Below are positions 18,999-27,315 of a DNA stretch of 64,000 bases, piece by piece. Position 1 is the stretch's first letter; each line of letters opens with the position of its first letter. The DNA comes from Candidatus Andersenbacteria bacterium RIFCSPHIGHO2_02_FULL_46_16. GTDB taxonomy: Bacteria > Patescibacteriota > Andersenbacteria > UBA10190. The stretch spans positions 4,049-68,048 of the forward strand of contig MHHQ01000029.1 of NCBI GenBank assembly GCA_001817065.1, in the 5' to 3' direction. Both the position numbers and the translations under genes were made by a program. The notes beneath the pieces are model-generated. The model worked only from the letters and a program-made list of their open reading frames with translations, searched no databases and was not told the origin of the DNA.

Positions 18999-21900
18999 TT
19001 AACTGTCACGAGCTACCGCCGGCTCAATGTGTAGCAGCGTTGCCTGGCTCACTATGTGATAATGGTCAAGAATTGTACCCGTCGCTTGCATAATGCCTGT
19101 AACCTTCACCGCCGGCAGCCCAAAAACATCATTGATTACGTCTCCCGTCTGGCTAAAAATTCCCTCTGCCCGCATATTTTGCGCTTCCAAAGCACCAATT
19201 ATCATTTCGCCGTTGTTAACTGGCAATTCTCCTTCCGCTAACTGGATATTTCCCTCATTAAAACTGTTAACACCTAAAAATAATTTGGGCACACCCTTGG
19301 TAAAGTTAACCCTGGTTATGCCTTGCGCAATATATTCGCTGATTAGCGCTCTATTTTTCTCCTGTTCAATCACCATAGCACTCGTCTCTATACTGCCTTG
19401 TGCCTGTTCCGCTACTGTTGGTTCACCAACCACTGGGGTTGTCGCTGCCACTTCATTCTTCTCGCTCTCCGCCCCTACTTGCTCAGGCATCCCTGCTTCC
19501 GCAACCAGTTGTTCTTGTGCCGCTATATCTCCGGCCTTACCGGTTGTTTGTTCTGGTTTTTCCATTTGCGTTTCCTCCACTACCAACTCACCTTCCGGCA
19601 TATTCGCTTCCGTATTCAATCCCGCAAACCCCAAAAACAGTCCGGTAAAGACAATAACCATAACCGCCGGCGCCGCCGCTGACATCCAATTCTTTTTGTT
19701 TGGTTTAAATCCGCGCAGGAGTAGCGAATTACCCACCACAGAAATCGAGCTAAAAGCCATGGCTAATCCAGCCAGTTCCGGCCGCAAAACTAATCCGAGA
19801 CCAGCAAATAGTCGCGCTGCCACCGGAATACCAATCACGTTATAAAACAGAGCAAAAAACATATTTTGCTTGATTTTGCTCATTGTTTCTCTTGATAACT
19901 GGATAGTCGTCAGAACATCATTCAAGTCATTCCTAATAATTATTATTTCACCCGTTTCCAAAGCAACGTCTGTTCCTGAACCCATGGCAATACCTAAATC
20001 AGCCTGCGCCAACGCCGGTGCATCATTTATACCATCGCCCACCATCGCGACCATTTTGCCCTGCTCTTGCAACTTCTTCACTTCATTGGCTTTGTCTTCT
20101 GGCAACACTTCTGCCAACACATTCGTCATGCCAATTTCTGCCGCTATCGCCTGCGCCGTGCGTCGGTTATCACCCGTAATCATATAGACCACAATCCCCA
20201 AATCTTTTAGTTTCTGTACCGCCGCCTGAGCGCTGGGTTTAACCGTATCAGCCACCGCGACCAAGCCGATAATACTCCGCCCAGAGGCCAGGATCATGAC
20301 CGTCTGTCCCCTATTCTCTAGTCGCGTCATGTCTTCTTCTATATCAGCCACATTCAATCCGGCTGCGACAATCAAATGACGGTTACCAAAATAATATTTT
20401 TTTCCAGCCATAGTACCCACAACGCCCTGGCCCGGTACCGGTGCAAAATCTGCTACCTCCAAGAAATCACTTTTCTGGTCCTGGGCATACTGGTAAATTG
20501 CTTCCGCTAAAGGATGCTCGGATGAACGTTCCAATGAGCCAGCTAACTGTAGCAGTGTTGCATCATCTGCTGCTTGGTAGTTAATGAGCGCTGTCACCGT
20601 AGGCTTTCCATTCGTTAGAGTTCCTGTCTTATCGAACACTATCGCATTAATTTTTCTCACCTTTTCCAGCGGTTCACCACCTTTAATCAGAATACCGTGC
20701 TCCGCCCCTTTACCTGTGCTGACCATAATAGCGGTTGGCGTTGCCAAACCAAGCGCGCAAGGACAAGCGATCACGATGACCGCCGTAAAAGCCATCAAAG
20801 AAAAAGCCAAGGTAGCCCCCAGCACGAAATACCACACTACAAATGTGGTGATAGCAATTACGATAACCGCCGGCACAAACCAGGCTGAAATGCGATCCGC
20901 CAACGCCTGCACTGGCGCCCTCGACCCCTGCGCATCTTCAATCAATTTAATAATCTGTGCCAACATTGTTTCCCCGCCCACTTTAGTTGCCTCAAGCTCA
21001 AAACTGCCATTCTTGTTCATAGTAGAACCGATGACTGTATCCCCTGGGTGTTTTTCCACTGGCAGACTTTCGCCAGTTATCATCGCCTCATCCACCGCCG
21101 ATGATCCGCTAGTAATCACACCATCTACTGGAACAATTTCTCCCGGCCGCACAATCACCGTATCTCCTACTACTACTTGCTCAATCGGCAAGTCCACTGT
21201 TTGATCGCCTCGCACCACTCGCGCCGTCTTAGCCTGTAAGCCCATTAGCTTCTTAATGGCTTCCGAAGTTCGCCCTTTCGCCTTGGATTCTAAGTATTTC
21301 CCCAACAATACGAAGGTTATTAAGAAAGCTGCAGTTTCAAAGTATAGGTCAGGTATCATTTTTCCCGCCTCGGCAATAAACGAGCCAGCATTTAGCACAT
21401 ACGCGCCAAAATTGTAGAGGCTGTAAAAGTAAGCCGTTGAAGTGCCAATCGCAATCAAGCTATCCATATTAAATGTTTTCATCCGCAAACTAGACCATGC
21501 GCCCGCATAAAAACCTGCCCCGATTACAAACTGCACTGGTGTCGCCAGAATAAAGGAAACCAATCCCGCATAGGGCAGAATAAAACTCGTTCCCGGCAGC
21601 CACTTAAAGAATGTCTGCAGCATAAAATACAGCATCGGCAGACTCAGCAGCAGTGCATAAAAAAACTTTTTCTTTAACCGTGCGATCTCTTTAGCTTTCT
21701 TTTCCTCGACCTGTTTAGCATCCCCCTGATCAACCGGCATTGCTTCATAACCTGCCTTTTTCACTGCTGTTATTAAATCGTTCACCGAGACCGTGGCCGG
21801 ATTAAAGACTACCGACGCCTTCTCGACAGCAAAATTTACGTTTGCTTCCAACACACCCGGCCGCTTCTTTAATGACCGCTCAATAATCGCCGCGCAGGAC

Positions 21901-22241
21901 GAACAATGCATACCGGATATTAACAAGGACGCACGCGTCTTACTTGCCACTTCTGGTTTAACTAGCTTGGCAGCTTCCTCTTTGGGGAATAAAAGCTTTG
22001 CACTCGTTCCTCTCTCACTCATGTCACCCATTACAGTCGCTTGATATCCCTCTTTGCTTATGACCGTAATAATCTGCTCCGGCGAGATCGAACTGTCATC
22101 ATACTCAATAACGGCATTTTTTTTCTGATAGCTTATCTCCGCCTTACTCACACCTCTTAATTCCTGAACAGCTTCTTTTATTAACAGCTCACACGATCCG
22201 CAGTGCATGCCATTAATGTTTAGCCTTATTTTCTTTGTCAT
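18999..22241 (-). CDS. copA: Cu(I)-translocating P1B-type ATPase with two N-terminal HMA domains and a C-terminal extension of about 250 aa
   Basis: Two GMHCxxC HMA domains. CPC transmembrane motif, [15 protein letters not shown]. An extra TM plus acidic linker plus globular domain follow the normal ATPase end. Confidence 0.9.
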
Positions 22242-22259: not shown

Positions 22260-22441
22260 TAGGCGCCGTAAATAAATAACTTGGCCAGATCTCGTTCAAT
22301 CTGCGCCGAGATACGGCTTTTTCGATTGAGCGAAATACGAAGCGTAATAGAACTACGGTGAGTGTTTCGCGATTGAGAAAAAGTCGCAGATTGGTGCATA
22401 GTGGACGAGAGGTGGTTAAGTTATTTATTTACGGTGCCTTA
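22260..22441 (+). repeat. MITE-like element, family 1 copy 2 (about 182 bp, internal deletion)
   Basis: TIRs TAGGCGCCGTAAATAAATAACTT and AAGTTATTTATTTACGGTGCCTTA. Flanked by GCTAATT on both sides, which looks like a 7-bp target duplication. Fills the whole copZ–copA intergenic region. Confidence 0.7.
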
Positions 22442-22639
22442 GGCTAATTGATAAGGCGTATCAGCCAATGCTTGCTTGATCACATCAGGCTTAAACTCCT
22501 GGTCAGCCACTATTATAGTCTGGCCATCCACCTTAACATCTACATCCTGTACGTTAGGTAAACGTCGTAAACGCTTTTGCACCATTTTAACGCAAGCTTC
22601 ACAGGTCAAACCTGTTAATTGAATGTTTTGTGTAATCAT
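22439..22639 (-). CDS. copZ: copper chaperone CopZ (single HMA domain)
   Basis: 66 aa with GLTCEACV metal-binding loop. Stop codon abuts or overlaps the MITE end. Confidence 0.8.
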   Translation of the reverse strand: MITQNIQLTGLTCEACVKMVQKRLRRLPNVQDVDVKVDGQTIIVADQEFKPDVIKQALADTPYQLA

Positions 22640-22709: not shown

Positions 22710-24524
22710 TTATATCTCATTGACGACGATATTGCCGCGAGGTACGCCCATCGCACACGTGATCGGGTATGAACCGGCCTTCTTTGGTGTGAATTCAAAG
22801 GTTATCTTCTGACCGCGCCGAAAATTCTGTACATCTTCAGTCAGTCCAGGAACAGTAATGCTCCCCATACAACCAGAACCATTGTCCTTCGCATCAATCT
22901 CGAAACGAACGGGTTGATTTGCTCTTACCGTAAACTGGTTAGGCGATAAATCCGCTTTCCTCGTATAAGCAGCTTGTATAACCTGCACCTCATCTTGACT
23001 TATAGTCTCGCCTTTGGCCGGCTCAGCTTTATTAGCTCCTCCGCCACAACCGCCACAACCGCCGCCCGCGCCGCCGCAAGAACCTTTGGCCGCAGCCGGT
23101 TGATCAACGGGCTGGTCAAGTGCTATAGCTCTACCACGTGCCTCTGCCCCGTCTTTGTCTATGACATTAAATACACCGGTATACATACCCATAGCACAGG
23201 AAAAACGTATTTGCCCCGTTTCTTTCGGGGTAAATTCAATGACGTTCTCCCCTAACTGCAAATTACGCCGCACTCCTAGTTGCTGCGAATAAAGACTTCC
23301 GGCGCAACTGTTCGGATTAGTTGAATTCACAATCCATTTGACCGGAACACCTGCCTGAATTGTAAATTTGTTAGGACTATAACCACTGCCAGACTGCTCC
23401 ATCCGTACTACCTGGACGTCCTTATTATCACTTCCTTCCTGTTGAACCTCTGCTATCTGTCCTGCTCCCTGGGCCACCGTTGATAGAATTACCGGTAGAC
23501 CAGTTAAGTTTAAGCCATTCGAGATGTTAAACACCGCTAAACCAACCACCGCGAGCCCCGCCAACTTAAAGAAACGCTGCGCCATAATTCCACGTAAGGC
23601 AGAAGTAAGTCCACCCACACCCAACAATCCCGGTGTTGTACCTACCGCAAACGTCGCCATAATCAGTGCCCCCGACCAAAAGTTGCCCGTACTCATCGCG
23701 TACAATTGCATTGCTTGTGTGAAACCGCACGGCAGGAAAAAAGTCAAAACACCAACCATCGCCGCATTACGATGACTATACTCCCTTTCGTGCTTTTGTT
23801 TAATTCCCAATTTCTTACTCAAACCAGCCGGCAAAGAAATAGCCCAGCTGGATAAGCGAGGTGAAAGTTGCGTGAGCTGGATCCCTAACAGCAGCATCAC
23901 TAAGCCCACACCAATAGTTAATGCCCCAAGCAGAGTACCGGATAGTTGGAATGCCTGCCCAATTAAACCAATTAATCCGCCCAGCACAAAATATCCCGCT
24001 ATACGCCCTGCGTTAAAAAATATATGCGGACGGAATTTCTGCACCGTTGTTGCTTCTGGATGTGACTGAGCATGTTTGGCTGACATACCAAGTACCAAAC
24101 CACCCACCAAAGCCATGCAAGTAGACACCCCGGCCAGCAATCCCACCGTCAGCACAACCAATAAACTGGCCGGACTATCGCCTGGATTAAAACTGGCATT
24201 AAGAATGCCCATGCCTTTTAGCACAAAGTACAAGATTAACAGAATTCCGGCCGCTAATGCTATTTCGTCGTACTGTTTCTTGTCTGGTGTAACCCATGGC
24301 AGCGCCCCCGAATGACCCACACTATAACCAGCCTCCTTAACTGCTTCCTCCACCTTTGCCATACTTAGCCCCCCCCGGTAAGTAATTTCCGCTTCTTGCC
24401 GTCGCCGGCTGACTGACACAGTCTGCACGCCTGGCAGCTCTTTCAATTGTTCTTCTATTAATAGTTCGCATGAGGCGCAATGCATGCCTCGAATCGGTAT
24501 AGTTTTTTTATTCATGATCCTCAA
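22710..24524 (-). CDS. HMA domain – polytopic Cys-motif membrane domain – Gly/Cys linker – two cupredoxin-like domains (putative metal transporter/sequestration protein)
   Basis: N-terminal GMHCASC HMA. About eight TM helices with VSTCMA and FLPCGF motifs (DsbD_2/TauE-like). A GSCGGAGGGCGGCGGGA linker. Two C-terminal beta-rich domains with CxGS...CAMG pairs resembling Cupredoxin_1. Confidence 0.55.
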   Translation of the reverse strand: MRIMNKKTIPIRGMHCASCELLIEEQLKELPGVQTVSVSRRRQEAEITYRGGLSMAKVEEAVKEAGYSVGHSGALPWVTPDKKQYDEIALAAGILLILYFVLKGMGILNASFNPGDSPASLLVVLTVGLLAGVSTCMALVGGLVLGMSAKHAQSHPEATTVQKFRPHIFFNAGRIAGYFVLGGLIGLIGQAFQLSGTLLGALTIGVGLVMLLLGIQLTQLSPRLSSWAISLPAGLSKKLGIKQKHEREYSHRNAAMVGVLTFFLPCGFTQAMQLYAMSTGNFWSGALIMATFAVGTTPGLLGVGGLTSALRGIMAQRFFKLAGLAVVGLAVFNISNGLNLTGLPVILSTVAQGAGQIAEVQQEGSDNKDVQVVRMEQSGSGYSPNKFTIQAGVPVKWIVNSTNPNSCAGSLYSQQLGVRRNLQLGENVIEFTPKETGQIRFSCAMGMYTGVFNVIDKDGAEARGRAIALDQPVDQPAAAKGSCGGAGGGCGGCGGGANKAEPAKGETISQDEVQVIQAAYTRKADLSPNQFTVRANQPVRFEIDAKDNGSGCMGSITVPGLTEDVQNFRRGQKITFEFTPKKAGSYPITCAMGVPRGNIVVNEI

Positions 24525-24612: not shown

Positions 24613-24990
24613 TTAATGAACGCGAGGATGTAATATGCCCTGCTGTAACGCTACTAGGATATAATTTTGGGGCAATAGCCAAGGATTATATGGCCAAAAA
24701 AGAGCAGCAGGCAAACGAGAACGCAACAGGTCTTGTAGATAGCTAGTTTTTGTGAACATAACCGTTAACCACCATGCCATCAGGCCTAAAAACACGGCTA
24801 AGTAATCCGGGGACGTCACCTGCAAACTACTTATTAAACTCTCAATCAAGCAAGGACTGTTACCCAAACTAGCATGCACCCACATATGACCAAAAGTCAC
24901 ACTGCAGGCTATCGGCCCAATCACCAACACACCCAACAAGAGCCAAGCTGTAATTTTTATTGATTTTCCAAAAACCATATTCATGAACAT
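24613..24990 (-). CDS. hypothetical small membrane protein
   Basis: ORF with three hydrophobic segments, inside the metal operon. Confidence 0.3.
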   Translation of the reverse strand: MFMNMVFGKSIKITAWLLLGVLVIGPIACSVTFGHMWVHASLGNSPCLIESLISSLQVTSPDYLAVFLGLMAWWLTVMFTKTSYLQDLLRSRLPAALFWPYNPWLLPQNYILVALQQGILHPRVH

Positions 24991-25027: not shown

Positions 25028-25300
25028 TTACGACTTCACCCAGCGTCTATATAAAGCAACCACTGCGTACGTCCATATCCAAACTACAGCCATACTGGAA
25101 ATAAGTCCTATTAACAATGTACTGGAAGAAAATTCCTCGACGACTCCCGGTGAAACGTTAAACGTATGAAACCAACTTTGCACAATCGTGAAAAGCCAGC
25201 CTGGAACCAACCAGGAGAGTACACGACACACCACATAACCTACCCCCATCACCACCGCCATAGCATTCGCTGCCACCTTACTGTTAACCATAATTCTCAC
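25028..25300 (-). CDS. hypothetical small membrane protein
   Basis: ORF with 4-nt overlap (ATGA) with the upstream gene. Two TM segments. Confidence 0.3.
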   Translation of the reverse strand: MRIMVNSKVAANAMAVVMGVGYVVCRVLSWLVPGWLFTIVQSWFHTFNVSPGVVEEFSSSTLLIGLISSMAVVWIWTYAVVALYRRWVKS

Positions 25301-26148
25301 CTCCTATCATATACTAACCAGCGAACTAACCGGTAAACAACATAAATAAGTAGAACATAAAATATTCCGTTTATTATTGGCCATCGATCAGTCCATCCAG
25401 TCACCAGCCAAGCTGTATCGTTAACTATTTGAGCCGGTCCAGTCGGCATACTTAAGCGACCCGTAATCGCTAAACCCAACGTTATTAAACCCAAACTAAA
25501 GAACATAATAGCGGAAACCAAATTAGTGATAAACACCGGATAGTATCTGCCATCTAAATTAATAGAAAATATCCGCTTATTAAATATTGGCTTTTCTAAC
25601 AGATGAACGCGTTTGATAACTAAACCAGCTATGTACAATGGTGCTACCATACCAGCTACAAAAGCTAAGCCGACCAAAAATGCGTGCCATAAACTCGGCG
25701 ATAATGAACTTAAGGCCAAAACACCAATTAAAACTGGTGCGCAACACGCAGCCGTTATTCCAGCCGTTAGCCCTAATACATAGGTTGACAACCAGTCCAT
25801 CTCGCCACCTGCTTTTGCTGGTAAGTGAGGCATTGGGAGCTTCACACCAACCAACGACAAGATAGCCGCAGCCATCATAATAGATCCGCCGACAATATAC
25901 GTTTCAGTGTGCCAGCGAAAGAAAAAGCTGGCTAATACTTTGGCGCCCAGCACAATCGGCAGCATGACAGTAAAAATCCCCGTCGAATAAACACCTGTCA
26001 TCAGTAAGATTTTCCTTTTTTCCTTAAAGACATTCCCGAGGTACGCCGGTAAGAGGTATGAGATACAACACGGTGCAAACAAAGCGACTAGACCAGCAAC
26101 AAAAGCCGCGAGCAGTGACACTTGGTAGAAAACGTCTCCACTGCTCAT
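25297..26148 (-). CDS. CcdA/DsbD_2-like membrane protein with two CC motifs
   Basis: FAPCCISYLLP and AACCAPV within TM helices. Six to eight TM segments. Confidence 0.5.
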   Translation of the reverse strand: MSSGDVFYQVSLLAAFVAGLVALFAPCCISYLLPAYLGNVFKEKRKILLMTGVYSTGIFTVMLPIVLGAKVLASFFFRWHTETYIVGGSIMMAAAILSLVGVKLPMPHLPAKAGGEMDWLSTYVLGLTAGITAACCAPVLIGVLALSSLSPSLWHAFLVGLAFVAGMVAPLYIAGLVIKRVHLLEKPIFNKRIFSINLDGRYYPVFITNLVSAIMFFSLGLITLGLAITGRLSMPTGPAQIVNDTAWLVTGWTDRWPIINGIFYVLLIYVVYRLVRWLVYDRR

Positions 26149-26153
26149 ATACT

Positions 26154-26648
26154 CTACTGGACTACGTTAGCTGACATAGTAAGCACGATTTTTGGTTGGC
26201 GTGGATCGTTGGTCCTCATCATCGCCTGCCGTGTCACAGACCCTAGACCATTCGGACCATGAAAAGCTGGATCAAAAATAAGCTTAATAGTGGCAGCTTC
26301 ACCCGGCGGGACATTAGCCACATATGATGATCGTTCACCCATCCTAAACTCAGGCGAGATAACACTGCCCATTTCAACCTGCGCGACTGTACACATGCAC
26401 GAGGTTGTCACGTCGTATAATGCCAACGGGTCAGACCCTGTGTTACTGATTAGAAAATCAGTTATTAATAAGCCTTCATTAATACCAACGTCACCTCTTT
26501 CCTTAGTTGTTTCTGTCACAGACGCACTCACCTTCTGGCTCATCTTGACGCCAGTAGGAGTACTTAGCCTAGCAGCTAAATAAAGTCCGCCCACTATTAG
26601 TGCCACCATTCCAACCAATATACCAACTGTTAATCTGTTATTGCTCAT
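26154..26648 (-). CDS. membrane-anchored DUF1573-domain protein
   Basis: N-terminal TM. C-terminal pattern DFLISNTGSDPL...SCMCT...PGEAATIKLIFDP, typical of DUF1573. Confidence 0.55.
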   Translation of the reverse strand: MSNNRLTVGILVGMVALIVGGLYLAARLSTPTGVKMSQKVSASVTETTKERGDVGINEGLLITDFLISNTGSDPLALYDVTTSCMCTVAQVEMGSVISPEFRMGERSSYVANVPPGEAATIKLIFDPAFHGPNGLGSVTRQAMMRTNDPRQPKIVLTMSANVVQ

Positions 26649-26676: not shown

Positions 26677-26949
26677 CTATTTATTAACCATCTTCGACAC
26701 TTTCAAGATTTCCTCAATCATCTCCTGTTGTTTTTTTTCCTGGCTAGTCATCATCGCATGGCTAAAACAGCTTTTCAAATGATCCTCCATCAACATTTGA
26801 TGGGCTGATTTTAATAAACCTAACACAGCCAAGTTTTGCTGCATTATATCTATGCAATATTTATCCGCTTCCAACATACCGACAATAGTAGCCAGATGCG
26901 ACTGGGCCTTTTTAAAGTTAGTGGATATTTTCTCGTGATTTGCTTTCAT
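26677..26949 (-). CDS. csoR: CsoR/RcnR-family metal-sensing transcriptional repressor
   Basis: 90 aa, helical, with the conserved C...H...C triad positions (CIDIMQQ...H...C). Confidence 0.7.
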   Translation of the reverse strand: MKANHEKISTNFKKAQSHLATIVGMLEADKYCIDIMQQNLAVLGLLKSAHQMLMEDHLKSCFSHAMMTSQEKKQQEMIEEILKVSKMVNK

Positions 26950-26974
26950 AATAATATAATTTAATATCTAGACC

Positions 26975-26993
26975 TTACCTATAGGTTAGGTAA
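26975..26993. promoter_or_regulatory. candidate CsoR operator (TTACCTATAGGTTAGGTAA)
   Basis: TACCTA-N5-TAGGTA inverted repeat 26 nt upstream of the csoR start. The same half-sites occur upstream of copZ. Confidence 0.4.
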
Positions 26994-27123
26994 AACTATA
27001 TTAGCACATAACCCCTATACAGAACAAGCCGCATAAATTCTCGTTCGATGGTTTCCTGCACTGACCTCCCTCACCAGTAATCTTTTGCCTCCTCAGCACC
27101 TGCTGCTACCGGAACCGCTACAG

Positions 27124-27315
27124 GAAGCCCCATCCCGCCCCCTGGACGGGATGGCAGAATCCCGCGTAACAACCAACTGTCTGCCCCACTTGCTCCGCTA
27201 TCGGCAAAGCTACGCGGGGTTATCCCATTCGCACCTTGTCAGCCAAAGCCTTGGCGACGGCTGATTCAATCACCCCCACCACCGGCGGGGTGGCTTTCTG
27301 CGCAGTGGGATAAAA
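27124..27315 (+). repeat. GC-rich structured repeat, family 2 copy B (shortest)
   Basis: Shares blocks with copies A and C. Lacks one internal hairpin segment of about 45 nt and part of the 5' region. Confidence 0.7.

Follow-up and report, generated by a model that had tools for sequence, protein, structure and literature searches.

The gene at positions 22710..24524 (minus strand) of a 64,000-nucleotide stretch of Candidatus Andersenbacteria bacterium RIFCSPHIGHO2_02_FULL_46_16 (contig MHHQ01000029.1; hereafter the window) encodes an HMA domain, a DsbD_2 membrane domain and two CupA-type cupredoxin domains in one polypeptide. An original prediction, made from the nucleotide sequence alone, had presented this protein as a novel domain fusion with a new kind of metal site. 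The present analysis identifies it instead as a member of a widespread, mislabelled and uncharacterised copper-handling module. We tentatively propose that the protein acts as a thiolate/thioether Cu(I) ligand-exchange relay across the cytoplasmic membrane, as a copper-resistance accessory of the CsoR-regulated cop operon in Patescibacteria (the candidate phyla radiation, CPR). In this study, the domains, residues, relatives and genetic context of the protein are described, and the relay is weighed against three other explanations.

The open reading frame (ORF) as listed begins with TTG and comprises 604 codons. Translation confirmed its coordinates and all the motifs that had been quoted for it: GMHCASC, VSTCMA (C136), FLPCGF (C266), SCAGS (C407) and SCAMG (C443), together with CGGAGGGCGGCGG (residues 483-495), GCMGS (C552) and TCAMG (C590). 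The 5' sequence reads ...TATTGAGGATCATGAAT, and the listed TTG falls within a GAGGA Shine-Dalgarno-like element. Because the TTG overlaps this ribosome-binding site, the true start is likely the ATG at residue 4 (nucleotide 24515), which would give a protein of 601 amino acids. The ATG start agrees with the N-termini of homologues and with the 601-amino-acid length of a 95%-identical relative (P0001).

The domains are encoded in the following order, all on the minus strand. The N-terminus is a CopZ-like HMA domain (PF00403; residues 8-67, GMHC16ASC19, nucleotides 24324..24503; Pfam E 1.3e-12), and its secondary structure in the AlphaFold2 (AF2) model consists of strands at 5-12, 33-39 and 44-49 and helices at 17-28 and 55-64. 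An extra transmembrane (TM) helix, TM0 (residues 82-104, 24213..24281), follows and leads to a 6-TM core of the DsbD/CcdA/UreH superfamily (residues 124-331, 23532..24155), which matches Pfam DsbD_2 (PF13386) at E 2.9e-32, with 112.6 bits against a cut-off of 24.9 and over profile positions 2-198 of 199. Cupredoxin domain 1 (residues 359-455, 23160..23450) and cupredoxin domain 2 (residues 507-602, 22719..23006) are separated by a disordered linker (residues 456-506, 23007..23159) that carries the three-cysteine (Cys3) motif C483-GGAGGG-C490-GG-C493 (nucleotides 23046-23078) and has a pLDDT below 50 over 462-498 in the AF2 model. Pfam Cupredoxin_1 was found in two stretches (E 3.3e-20), the second at 523-601. 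The predicted set of domains therefore stands, but the Gly/Cys linker lies between the two cupredoxins and not, as had been proposed, ahead of both. A sub-threshold Filamin match (E 2e-4) was dismissed as a generic beta-sandwich resemblance.

In a search of the Protein Data Bank (PDB) with the family alignment as a profile, matches were confined to the HMA and CupA-type domains. Residues ~350-460 matched Streptococcus pneumoniae CupA (2MRY/4F2E) at E 8.7e-12 and the cupredoxin metal-binding domain of pneumococcal CopA (4F2F) at E 1.1e-10. Together with Cupredoxin_1 (PF13473), these matches bear out the cupredoxin fold that had been suspected for the C-terminal domains, an eight-stranded beta-sandwich nearest to that of CupA. 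CupA is a characterised Cu(I) chaperone with a high-affinity bis-thiolate site S1 and a Met-rich site S2 that share one bridging Cys (PMC7558416). In domain 1, C407 aligns with the first Cys of CupA and C443-A-M445-G-M447 with its C-G-M-N-M. Domain 2 aligns with CupA by phmmer (E 1.8e-5) through C552 and C590-A-M592; the second Met of its CxMxM motif is replaced by Val, and an invariant M553 directly follows the first Cys. The exchange of the usual His ligands for Cys is thus not a new kind of site, but matches the already known CupA-type Cu(I) site. The proposal of a thiolate-only site likewise fails, as it overlooked the conserved Met residues (C443-x-M445-x-M447, C552-M553 and C590-x-M592), and the ligand sets are predicted to be thiolate plus thioether. 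CupA-type domains also occur in other arrangements. Cyanobacterial plasmids encode "cupredoxin domain-containing proteins" in which an N-terminal anchor precedes two CupA-type domains, each bearing Cys...CxMxM; an example on a Gloeocapsa plasmid (L087, 5737-6708) adjoins a P1B ATPase gene, an HMA gene and a MerR-type regulator gene. Plasmids of Candidatus Manganitrophus encode P1B ATPases that bear a CupA-like domain.

The membrane region had been read as about eight TM helices that recall DsbD_2 or, less probably, TauE. The preference for DsbD_2 proved sound, and no Pfam TauE (PF01925) match was obtained for this region even at E<=5. The region is polytopic and contains VSTCMA and FLPCGF as described, but hydropathy and AF2 give seven helices rather than eight, namely TM0 and the six core helices TM1 (121-154), TM2 (160-191), TM3 (196-218), TM4 (251-279), TM5 (282-309) and TM6 (313-341). 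In the AF2 model, TM1 is broken at 134 and TM4 at 264-266, and C136 (codon 24117-24119) and P265-C266 (C266 codon 23727-23729) sit at these breaks. In the DsbD/LysE superfamily, whose core is a 3+3 inverted repeat, broken TM1 and TM4 helices with a Cys at each break are to be expected (PMC4608589), and a 6-TM core with a conserved Cys in TM1 and TM4 is also what characterizes DsbD and CcdA. A homologue from Acetoanaerobium matches Pfam DsbD_TM (PF02683) at E 3.4e-9. Neither hhalign nor fold searches recovered a similarity of the membrane domain to CcdA; hhalign of the family alignment against annotated CcdA and against a neighbouring CC-motif membrane protein gave an uninformative probability of 1-3%. 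The Pfam scan detected no thioredoxin-fold domain in the protein. TM1 of the target lacks the proline-flanked Cys context presumed for CcdA. On these comparisons, the protein appears to belong to the DsbD superfamily and is not demonstrably a CcdA-type electron carrier.

Charge distribution supports the proposed placement of the cupredoxins outside the cytoplasm. Among 63 close relatives (50-95% identity), the mean K+R counts of the predicted inside loops were 2.9/3.6/5.9/3.3 and those of the outside loops 0.4/0.4/0.1/1.2, and the HMA domain has no signal peptide. Because of these positive-inside loop charges and the missing signal peptide, the HMA domain is predicted to be cytoplasmic and both cupredoxins extracytoplasmic. 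TM0 would carry the chain from the cytoplasmic HMA domain to the outside start of the 6-TM core. Two compared homologues without the N-terminal extension, from Deinococcus and Tsukamurella, lack TM0 and begin at TM1, and the HMA-fused Acetoanaerobium homologue has it; this presence and absence gives independent support to the predicted topology.

The candidate ligands are strongly conserved. Invariant in the 63 close relatives are C16, C19, S134, C136, P166, H167, R174, M210, P265, C266, T269, Q270, M272, C407, C443, M445, M447, C552, M553, C590 and M592. A diverse set of 116 cluster representatives (29-54% identity) retains C16/C19 in 115, C136, C266 and C407 in all 116, C443 in 114, M445 in 113 and M447 in 96; M210 (106/116), Q270 (108/116) and Q273 (114/116) are kept in at least 90% of them. 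The paired cysteines of the cupredoxin, whose loss in homologues would have spoken against the original prediction, are thus conserved. The membrane and cupredoxin ligand residues persist at ~29% identity in Deinococcus, in Chlorohelix (Chloroflexota), in Tsukamurella, Streptomyces and Mycolicibacterium (Actinomycetota) and in Acetoanaerobium (Clostridia). The Cys3 linker motif is common but optional; 45 of the 63 close relatives have it, and the other 18 have a Ser/Thr/Pro/Asn-rich linker instead.

The homologue search that had been recommended showed that the fusion is not novel. Of the candidates scored, 5544 matched the full-length protein at E<=1e-5, a similarity far beyond what chance would give; the top matches have E=0 and the same three Pfam domains, and nearly all of the best 120 of the 5544 are HMA+DsbD_2+Cupredoxin_1 proteins. 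Their sources are Microgenomates, Roizmanbacteria, Peregrinibacteria and other Patescibacteria. Relatives are encoded in at least 590 GTDB species genomes. Of the best 80 of these, many are CPR by name (Roizman-, Gottesman-, Levy-, Davies-, Moran- and Peregrinibacteria, "Patescibacteria group"), and the remainder were labelled automatically in generic or other terms, for example "uncultured Gammaproteobacteria". When the DsbD_2 domain plus cupredoxin 1 was searched against 1.84 billion representatives clustered at 50% identity, 811 matched at E<=1e-30, 2137 at E<=1e-10 and 5583 at E<=1e-3. The fusion is thus represented in at least 811 such clusters. TauE/SafE is the prevailing label in the family. 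Where named, the best matches are called "sulfite exporter TauE/SafE family protein" or "heavy metal transport/detoxification protein", and the JGI label on relatives is "TauE/SafE / plastocyanin domain / CopZ". In the literature searched, no paper on the HMA-DsbD_2-cupredoxin fusion and no functional study of it was found.

The family is modular. Most of the top representatives are 430-480 amino acids long and consist of an HMA domain, the TM region and one cupredoxin; a second cupredoxin is present in ~28 of the 116 diverse representatives. In Clostridia, the commonest form is HMA+DsbD_TM/DsbD_2, and a cupredoxin was recognised in 6 of the 120 best matches, so that the membrane domain with its HMA partner appears to work without a fused external thiol domain. 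Because single-cupredoxin and cupredoxin-less forms predominate, the two-cupredoxin target is one variant of a large modular family, in which, judged from these sequences, the two-Cys membrane domain and its cytoplasmic HMA partner form the constant core. The HMA domain may be fused or separate. In five cultivated or plasmid-borne cases, drawn from three other phyla, no HMA domain is encoded in the DsbD_2-cupredoxin gene, and in 5/5 that gene is directly followed by a gene for an HMA protein of 72-85 amino acids; these five loci usually adjoin a P1B ATPase gene and genes of metal-responsive regulators. This pattern, fused in CPR and adjacent in all five HMA-less cases, marks the HMA domain as a genuine functional partner of the membrane domain.

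The genetic context is that of copper export. The target lies in a cluster of eight minus-strand genes headed by csoR (26677..26949), which encodes a CsoR-family Cu(I)-sensing repressor (Pfam Trns_repr_metal E 1.9e-16, with a RicR-like NCBIfam match). Directly downstream of the target is copZ (22439..22639, minus), which encodes a 66-amino-acid HMA metallochaperone (Pfam HMA, NCBIfam CopZ-type), followed by copA (18999..22241, minus), which encodes a P1B-type Cu(I) ATPase with two N-terminal HMA domains (NCBIfam CopA E 2e-200, two HMA stretches). A putative CsoR operator, the near-perfect palindrome TACCTAACCTATAGGTAAGGTC (26971..26992), precedes the csoR ATG by 22-43 bp. The palindrome occurs only once in the window, where chance alone would give 0.01 matches, and it is kept in an 88%-identical locus (L001) whose flanking sequences are not. 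TACC...GGTA palindromes, which it resembles, occur 25-60 bp upstream of csoR in other loci. Gene content, strand and palindrome together identify a CsoR-regulated cop operon, with the regulation predicted. In 80 related CPR loci, the order target, copZ and copA on the same strand was near-universal, with copA in 77 and copZ in 61 of the 80; csoR lies ~900 bp or less upstream of the homologue in ~27. Within ±8 kb of these loci, a multicopper oxidase gene was present in 3/80, and no merA, tlpA or canonical ccdA was found in any.

In the relay that we propose, the cytoplasmic HMA domain (C16xxC19), loaded directly or via CopZ, would give Cu(I) to a membrane site at the broken TM1 and TM4 helices of the DsbD_2/UreH-type 6-TM domain, formed by C136 and C266 with Met210, Gln270 and Gln273 nearby. 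The metal would then pass to the outward CupA-type cupredoxins, each with a bis-thiolate S1 and a Met-containing S2, and the flexible Cys3 Gly-rich tether would give extra binding capacity in most close relatives. The external domains may hold or buffer Cu(I) outside the cell, and the net direction is probably outward, parallel to or in support of CopA. We infer Cu(I) as the metal, its passage through the membrane domain and its direction, the outward direction from co-regulation with the export genes alone.

Several lines of evidence favour this relay. The conserved cytoplasmic partner is a metal-binding domain and not a thioredoxin, and a dedicated HMA protein in the cytoplasm is easier to reconcile with metal transfer than with a supply of electrons. 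The core of HMA and membrane domain seems to occur with no recognised external thiol domain. The conservation of the candidate ligands, the predicted topology, the cop gene context and the independent assignment of HMA+DsbD_2 proteins (COG2836) to the CsoR regulon of gut Firmicutes (PMC4938975) also speak for the relay. The membrane family includes proteins labelled UreH-like by NCBI, and UreH proteins are secondary Ni permeases (PMC2667541). Members of the LysE/DsbD superfamily are mainly metal and amino-acid exporters (PMC4608589). Other findings weigh against the relay. A Cys pair at the TM1 and TM4 breaks equally typifies CcdA and DsbD, which carry electrons, and the Acetoanaerobium homologue resembles the DsbD_TM model. 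An ATP-independent Cu(I) exporter beside CopA looks redundant, and no driving force was identified. The TM residues M137, M272 and H167, invariant in close relatives, vary across the wider family. Two relatives, one actinobacterial and one from Deinococcus, are encoded near merA or merB, and the metal specificity may differ by lineage.

The main rival, which we regard as possible though not probable, is a redox conduit in which C136 and C266 move reducing equivalents outward in the manner of CcdA, DsbD or ScsB and keep or reset the Cys pairs of the CupA-type S1 sites in the reduced state. The external domains would then be able to take over the Cu(I) that CopA pumps out, or to bind Cu(II) after reducing it, and no copper would pass through the target. 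DsbD-superfamily membership, seen in the DsbD_2 and Acetoanaerobium DsbD_TM matches, is in keeping with this explanation, as is the single invariant Cys at each of the two helix breaks, and DsbD-family proteins have already been implicated in copper resistance (PMC4608589). The external domains depend on a Cys pair that copper and oxygen outside the cell would oxidise, and the CupA literature explicitly leaves the reductant of oxidised CupA cysteines unknown (PMC5646241). Genes for CcdA and TlpA are found near actinobacterial relatives, and the neighbouring CopA orthologues have a ninth TM helix and in many cases an external tail that could dock an external acceptor. The partner domain argues the other way, since the conserved cytoplasmic domain or gene is HMA rather than thioredoxin. 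In addition, the ±8 kb around the 80 CPR homologues contain neither a thioredoxin-fold nor a TlpA gene, many Clostridial relatives are HMA+DsbD_2 proteins without a recognised external Cys domain, the membrane domain was not linked to CcdA by hhalign or fold searches, TM1 has no proline-flanked Cys, and a Gly-rich tether with three Cys is better suited to binding metal than to exchanging two electrons. The Cu(I) relay and electron transfer are not mutually exclusive. A thiol-disulfide relay coupled to metal delivery, which the original prediction had raised as its second option, is one of the two hypotheses still in contention.

We consider it unlikely that the flow is inward, as in a relay of the MerP/MerT/NmerA type. 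The external cupredoxins would then take up Cu(I), Ag(I) or Hg(II) and pass it via the membrane Cys pair to the HMA domain and CopZ. In the cytoplasm, CopA would export the metal again or, in some lineages, MerA would reduce it. The architecture has the logic of MerP, the MerT Cys pairs and the HMA domain of MerA, and UreH relatives are uptake permeases (PMC2667541). Models of MerP, MerTP and the MerA N-domain give scores with the target HMA domain, but these are generic and far below family cut-offs. A homologue on a Tsukamurella plasmid (L083) and its small HMA gene are located just upstream of merA, and one on a Deinococcus plasmid (L082) is near merB and the gene of a MerR-family regulator; in such lineages the module may handle Hg(II) rather than Cu(I). 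For the CPR proteins, a mercury role was rejected, as merA was not found within ±8 kb in the 80 loci. Import of copper under a Cu-derepressed CsoR operon, followed by pumping it out again, would also be futile.

That the database label is correct, and the protein a TauE/SafE sulfite or organosulfonate exporter that happens to bear metal-binding domains, is highly improbable and effectively refuted by the family scan: only the NCBI and JGI names of relatives speak for it, and the membrane match is DsbD_2 rather than PF01925, the gene context is exclusively metal-related and the same polypeptide carries Cu(I)-binding domains of two kinds.

If Cu(I), or electrons for Cu(I) sites, cross the membrane via the target, the standard CsoR/CopZ/CopA model of copper resistance in single-membrane bacteria gains a new component, and the target would be a concrete candidate for what services the CupA-type cysteine sites. 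A bolder claim, which we hold to be doubtful, is that the family provides a previously unrecognised ATP-independent Cu(I) route (HMA to intramembrane Cys2 to external CupA-type sites), or that DsbD_2 is the long-sought loader or re-reducer of CupA-type bis-thiolate sites, or both. CupA-type sites would then be external in many phyla, and the family would be core to a lineage-wide copper resistance of Patescibacteria. The reassignment also corrects a systematic "sulfite exporter TauE/SafE" misannotation on thousands of database entries. Unlike CPR bacteria, Acetoanaerobium, Deinococcus, Streptomyces, Tsukamurella and Mycolicibacterium are cultivable hosts of the module.

Between csoR and the target, four further minus-strand genes complete the cluster. 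They encode an N-terminally anchored DUF1573/OS_HP2-like protein that carries a TSCMC motif (26154-26648); a 283-amino-acid polytopic membrane protein with two vicinal CC motifs (APCCISY and AACCAPV) and a weak TsoB/DsbD-like match (25297-26148); a 2-TM DUF5676 protein (25028-25300), which recurs in 15 of the 80 related loci; and a 125-amino-acid membrane protein without a family match (24613-24990), which is otherwise present only in L001. The DUF1573 and CC-membrane genes occur as a pair nearby in 24-28 of the 80 loci, and the pair looks like a second, split version of an external Cys beta-domain with a Cys membrane protein.

The C-terminal ~230 residues of CopA (18999-19700, minus) extend past the canonical P1B end. 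They comprise a ninth hydrophobic helix and a tail of ~200 amino acids, in which an acidic low-complexity stretch is followed by a domain of ~130 amino acids without a Pfam match. CopA orthologues encoded beside target homologues have the extra helix in 65/65 cases and a tail of more than 100 amino acids in 24/65. By topology, the tail should be extracytoplasmic, and it could be a docking site for the external cupredoxins.

Upstream of csoR, a GC-rich non-coding stretch of 276 nucleotides (27040-27315, minus) is flanked by a strong terminator-like hairpin (27338-27316) on one side and by the csoR promoter region on the other. None of 200 shuffled sequences folds as well (z = -3.1); the stretch matches no Rfam family and is not conserved in the 88%-related locus L001. 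GC skew of the plus strand is strongly and persistently negative over 1-50000 (-0.15 to -0.39 per 2 kb) and weakens beyond ~52 kb, a region in which the GC content falls to 0.33-0.40. The 64-kb window contains no tRNA genes and no Rfam matches. A defence role was rejected, as there was no PADLOC match.

DsbD, CcdA and ScsB, transmembrane thiol-disulfide electron carriers (DsbD_TM, PF02683; TC 5.A.1), are among the known systems closest to the target. The membrane domain belongs to the same Pfam clan and shares with them the 6-TM 3+3 core, the Cys residues at the TM1 and TM4 breaks, core N- and C-termini on the outside and fused Cys-bearing extracytoplasmic domains. It differs from them in that its best model is DsbD_2, that its cytoplasmic partner is an HMA domain and that a thioredoxin-fold partner is neither fused nor adjacent. 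A likeness to UreH is suggested by a Clostridial HMA+DsbD_TM/DsbD_2 relative that NCBI names "urease accessory protein UreH domain-containing protein", and in InterPro PF13386 presumably corresponds to a UreH-like TM domain. UreH proteins are putative secondary transporters of Ni and other metal cations (PMC2667541). Unlike the target, UreH-type Ni/Co permeases have no HMA or cupredoxin domain and are tied to Ni enzymes rather than to cop operons.

The MerP-MerT-MerA (N-domain) relay, in which a thiophilic metal is passed among Cys pairs from an external protein through the membrane to an HMA domain, is an analogy of working. The target membrane domain has no MerT homology, the external module is a cupredoxin and not an HMA fold, and the likely direction is opposite. 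The generic, sub-threshold MerP and MerTP matches stand alone, without the MerT-type protein and linked merA that define a Mer system. The COG2836 proteins of the Firmicutes CsoR meta-regulon (HMA + DsbD_2 + DUF2318) have the N-terminal HMA domain and the DsbD_2 core in common with the target. They are inferred to be CsoR-regulated in gut Firmicutes, sometimes in an operon with copA; they are known only from regulon prediction, and some HMA-containing members have been suggested as possible copper chaperones (PMC4938975). Their C-terminal module is DUF2318 or is absent, and that of the target family is one or two CupA-type cupredoxins.

CupA itself consists of ~120 amino acids with one N-terminal anchor helix and is described as working at the cytoplasmic face, where it hands Cu(I) to the cupredoxin domain of CopA (PMC7558416). 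The two CupA-type domains of the target, in contrast, come after a 7-TM region and are predicted to be outside the cell, and domain 2 lacks the last Met. The local CopA, unlike the pneumococcal one, has two HMA domains and no cupredoxin, and a separate CopZ exists. Because its domains follow seven TM helices, are predicted to be external and lie beside a CopA without a cupredoxin, the target is CupA-like in its domains rather than a CupA orthologue. Reviews limit CupA to a few streptococci, whereas the CupA-type sites of the target family are widespread and occur in hundreds of lineages; on the evidence of homologues, such sites are far more widespread than the literature states. The predicted topology of this family contradicts the accepted view of CupA-type sites as cytoplasmic and streptococcal.

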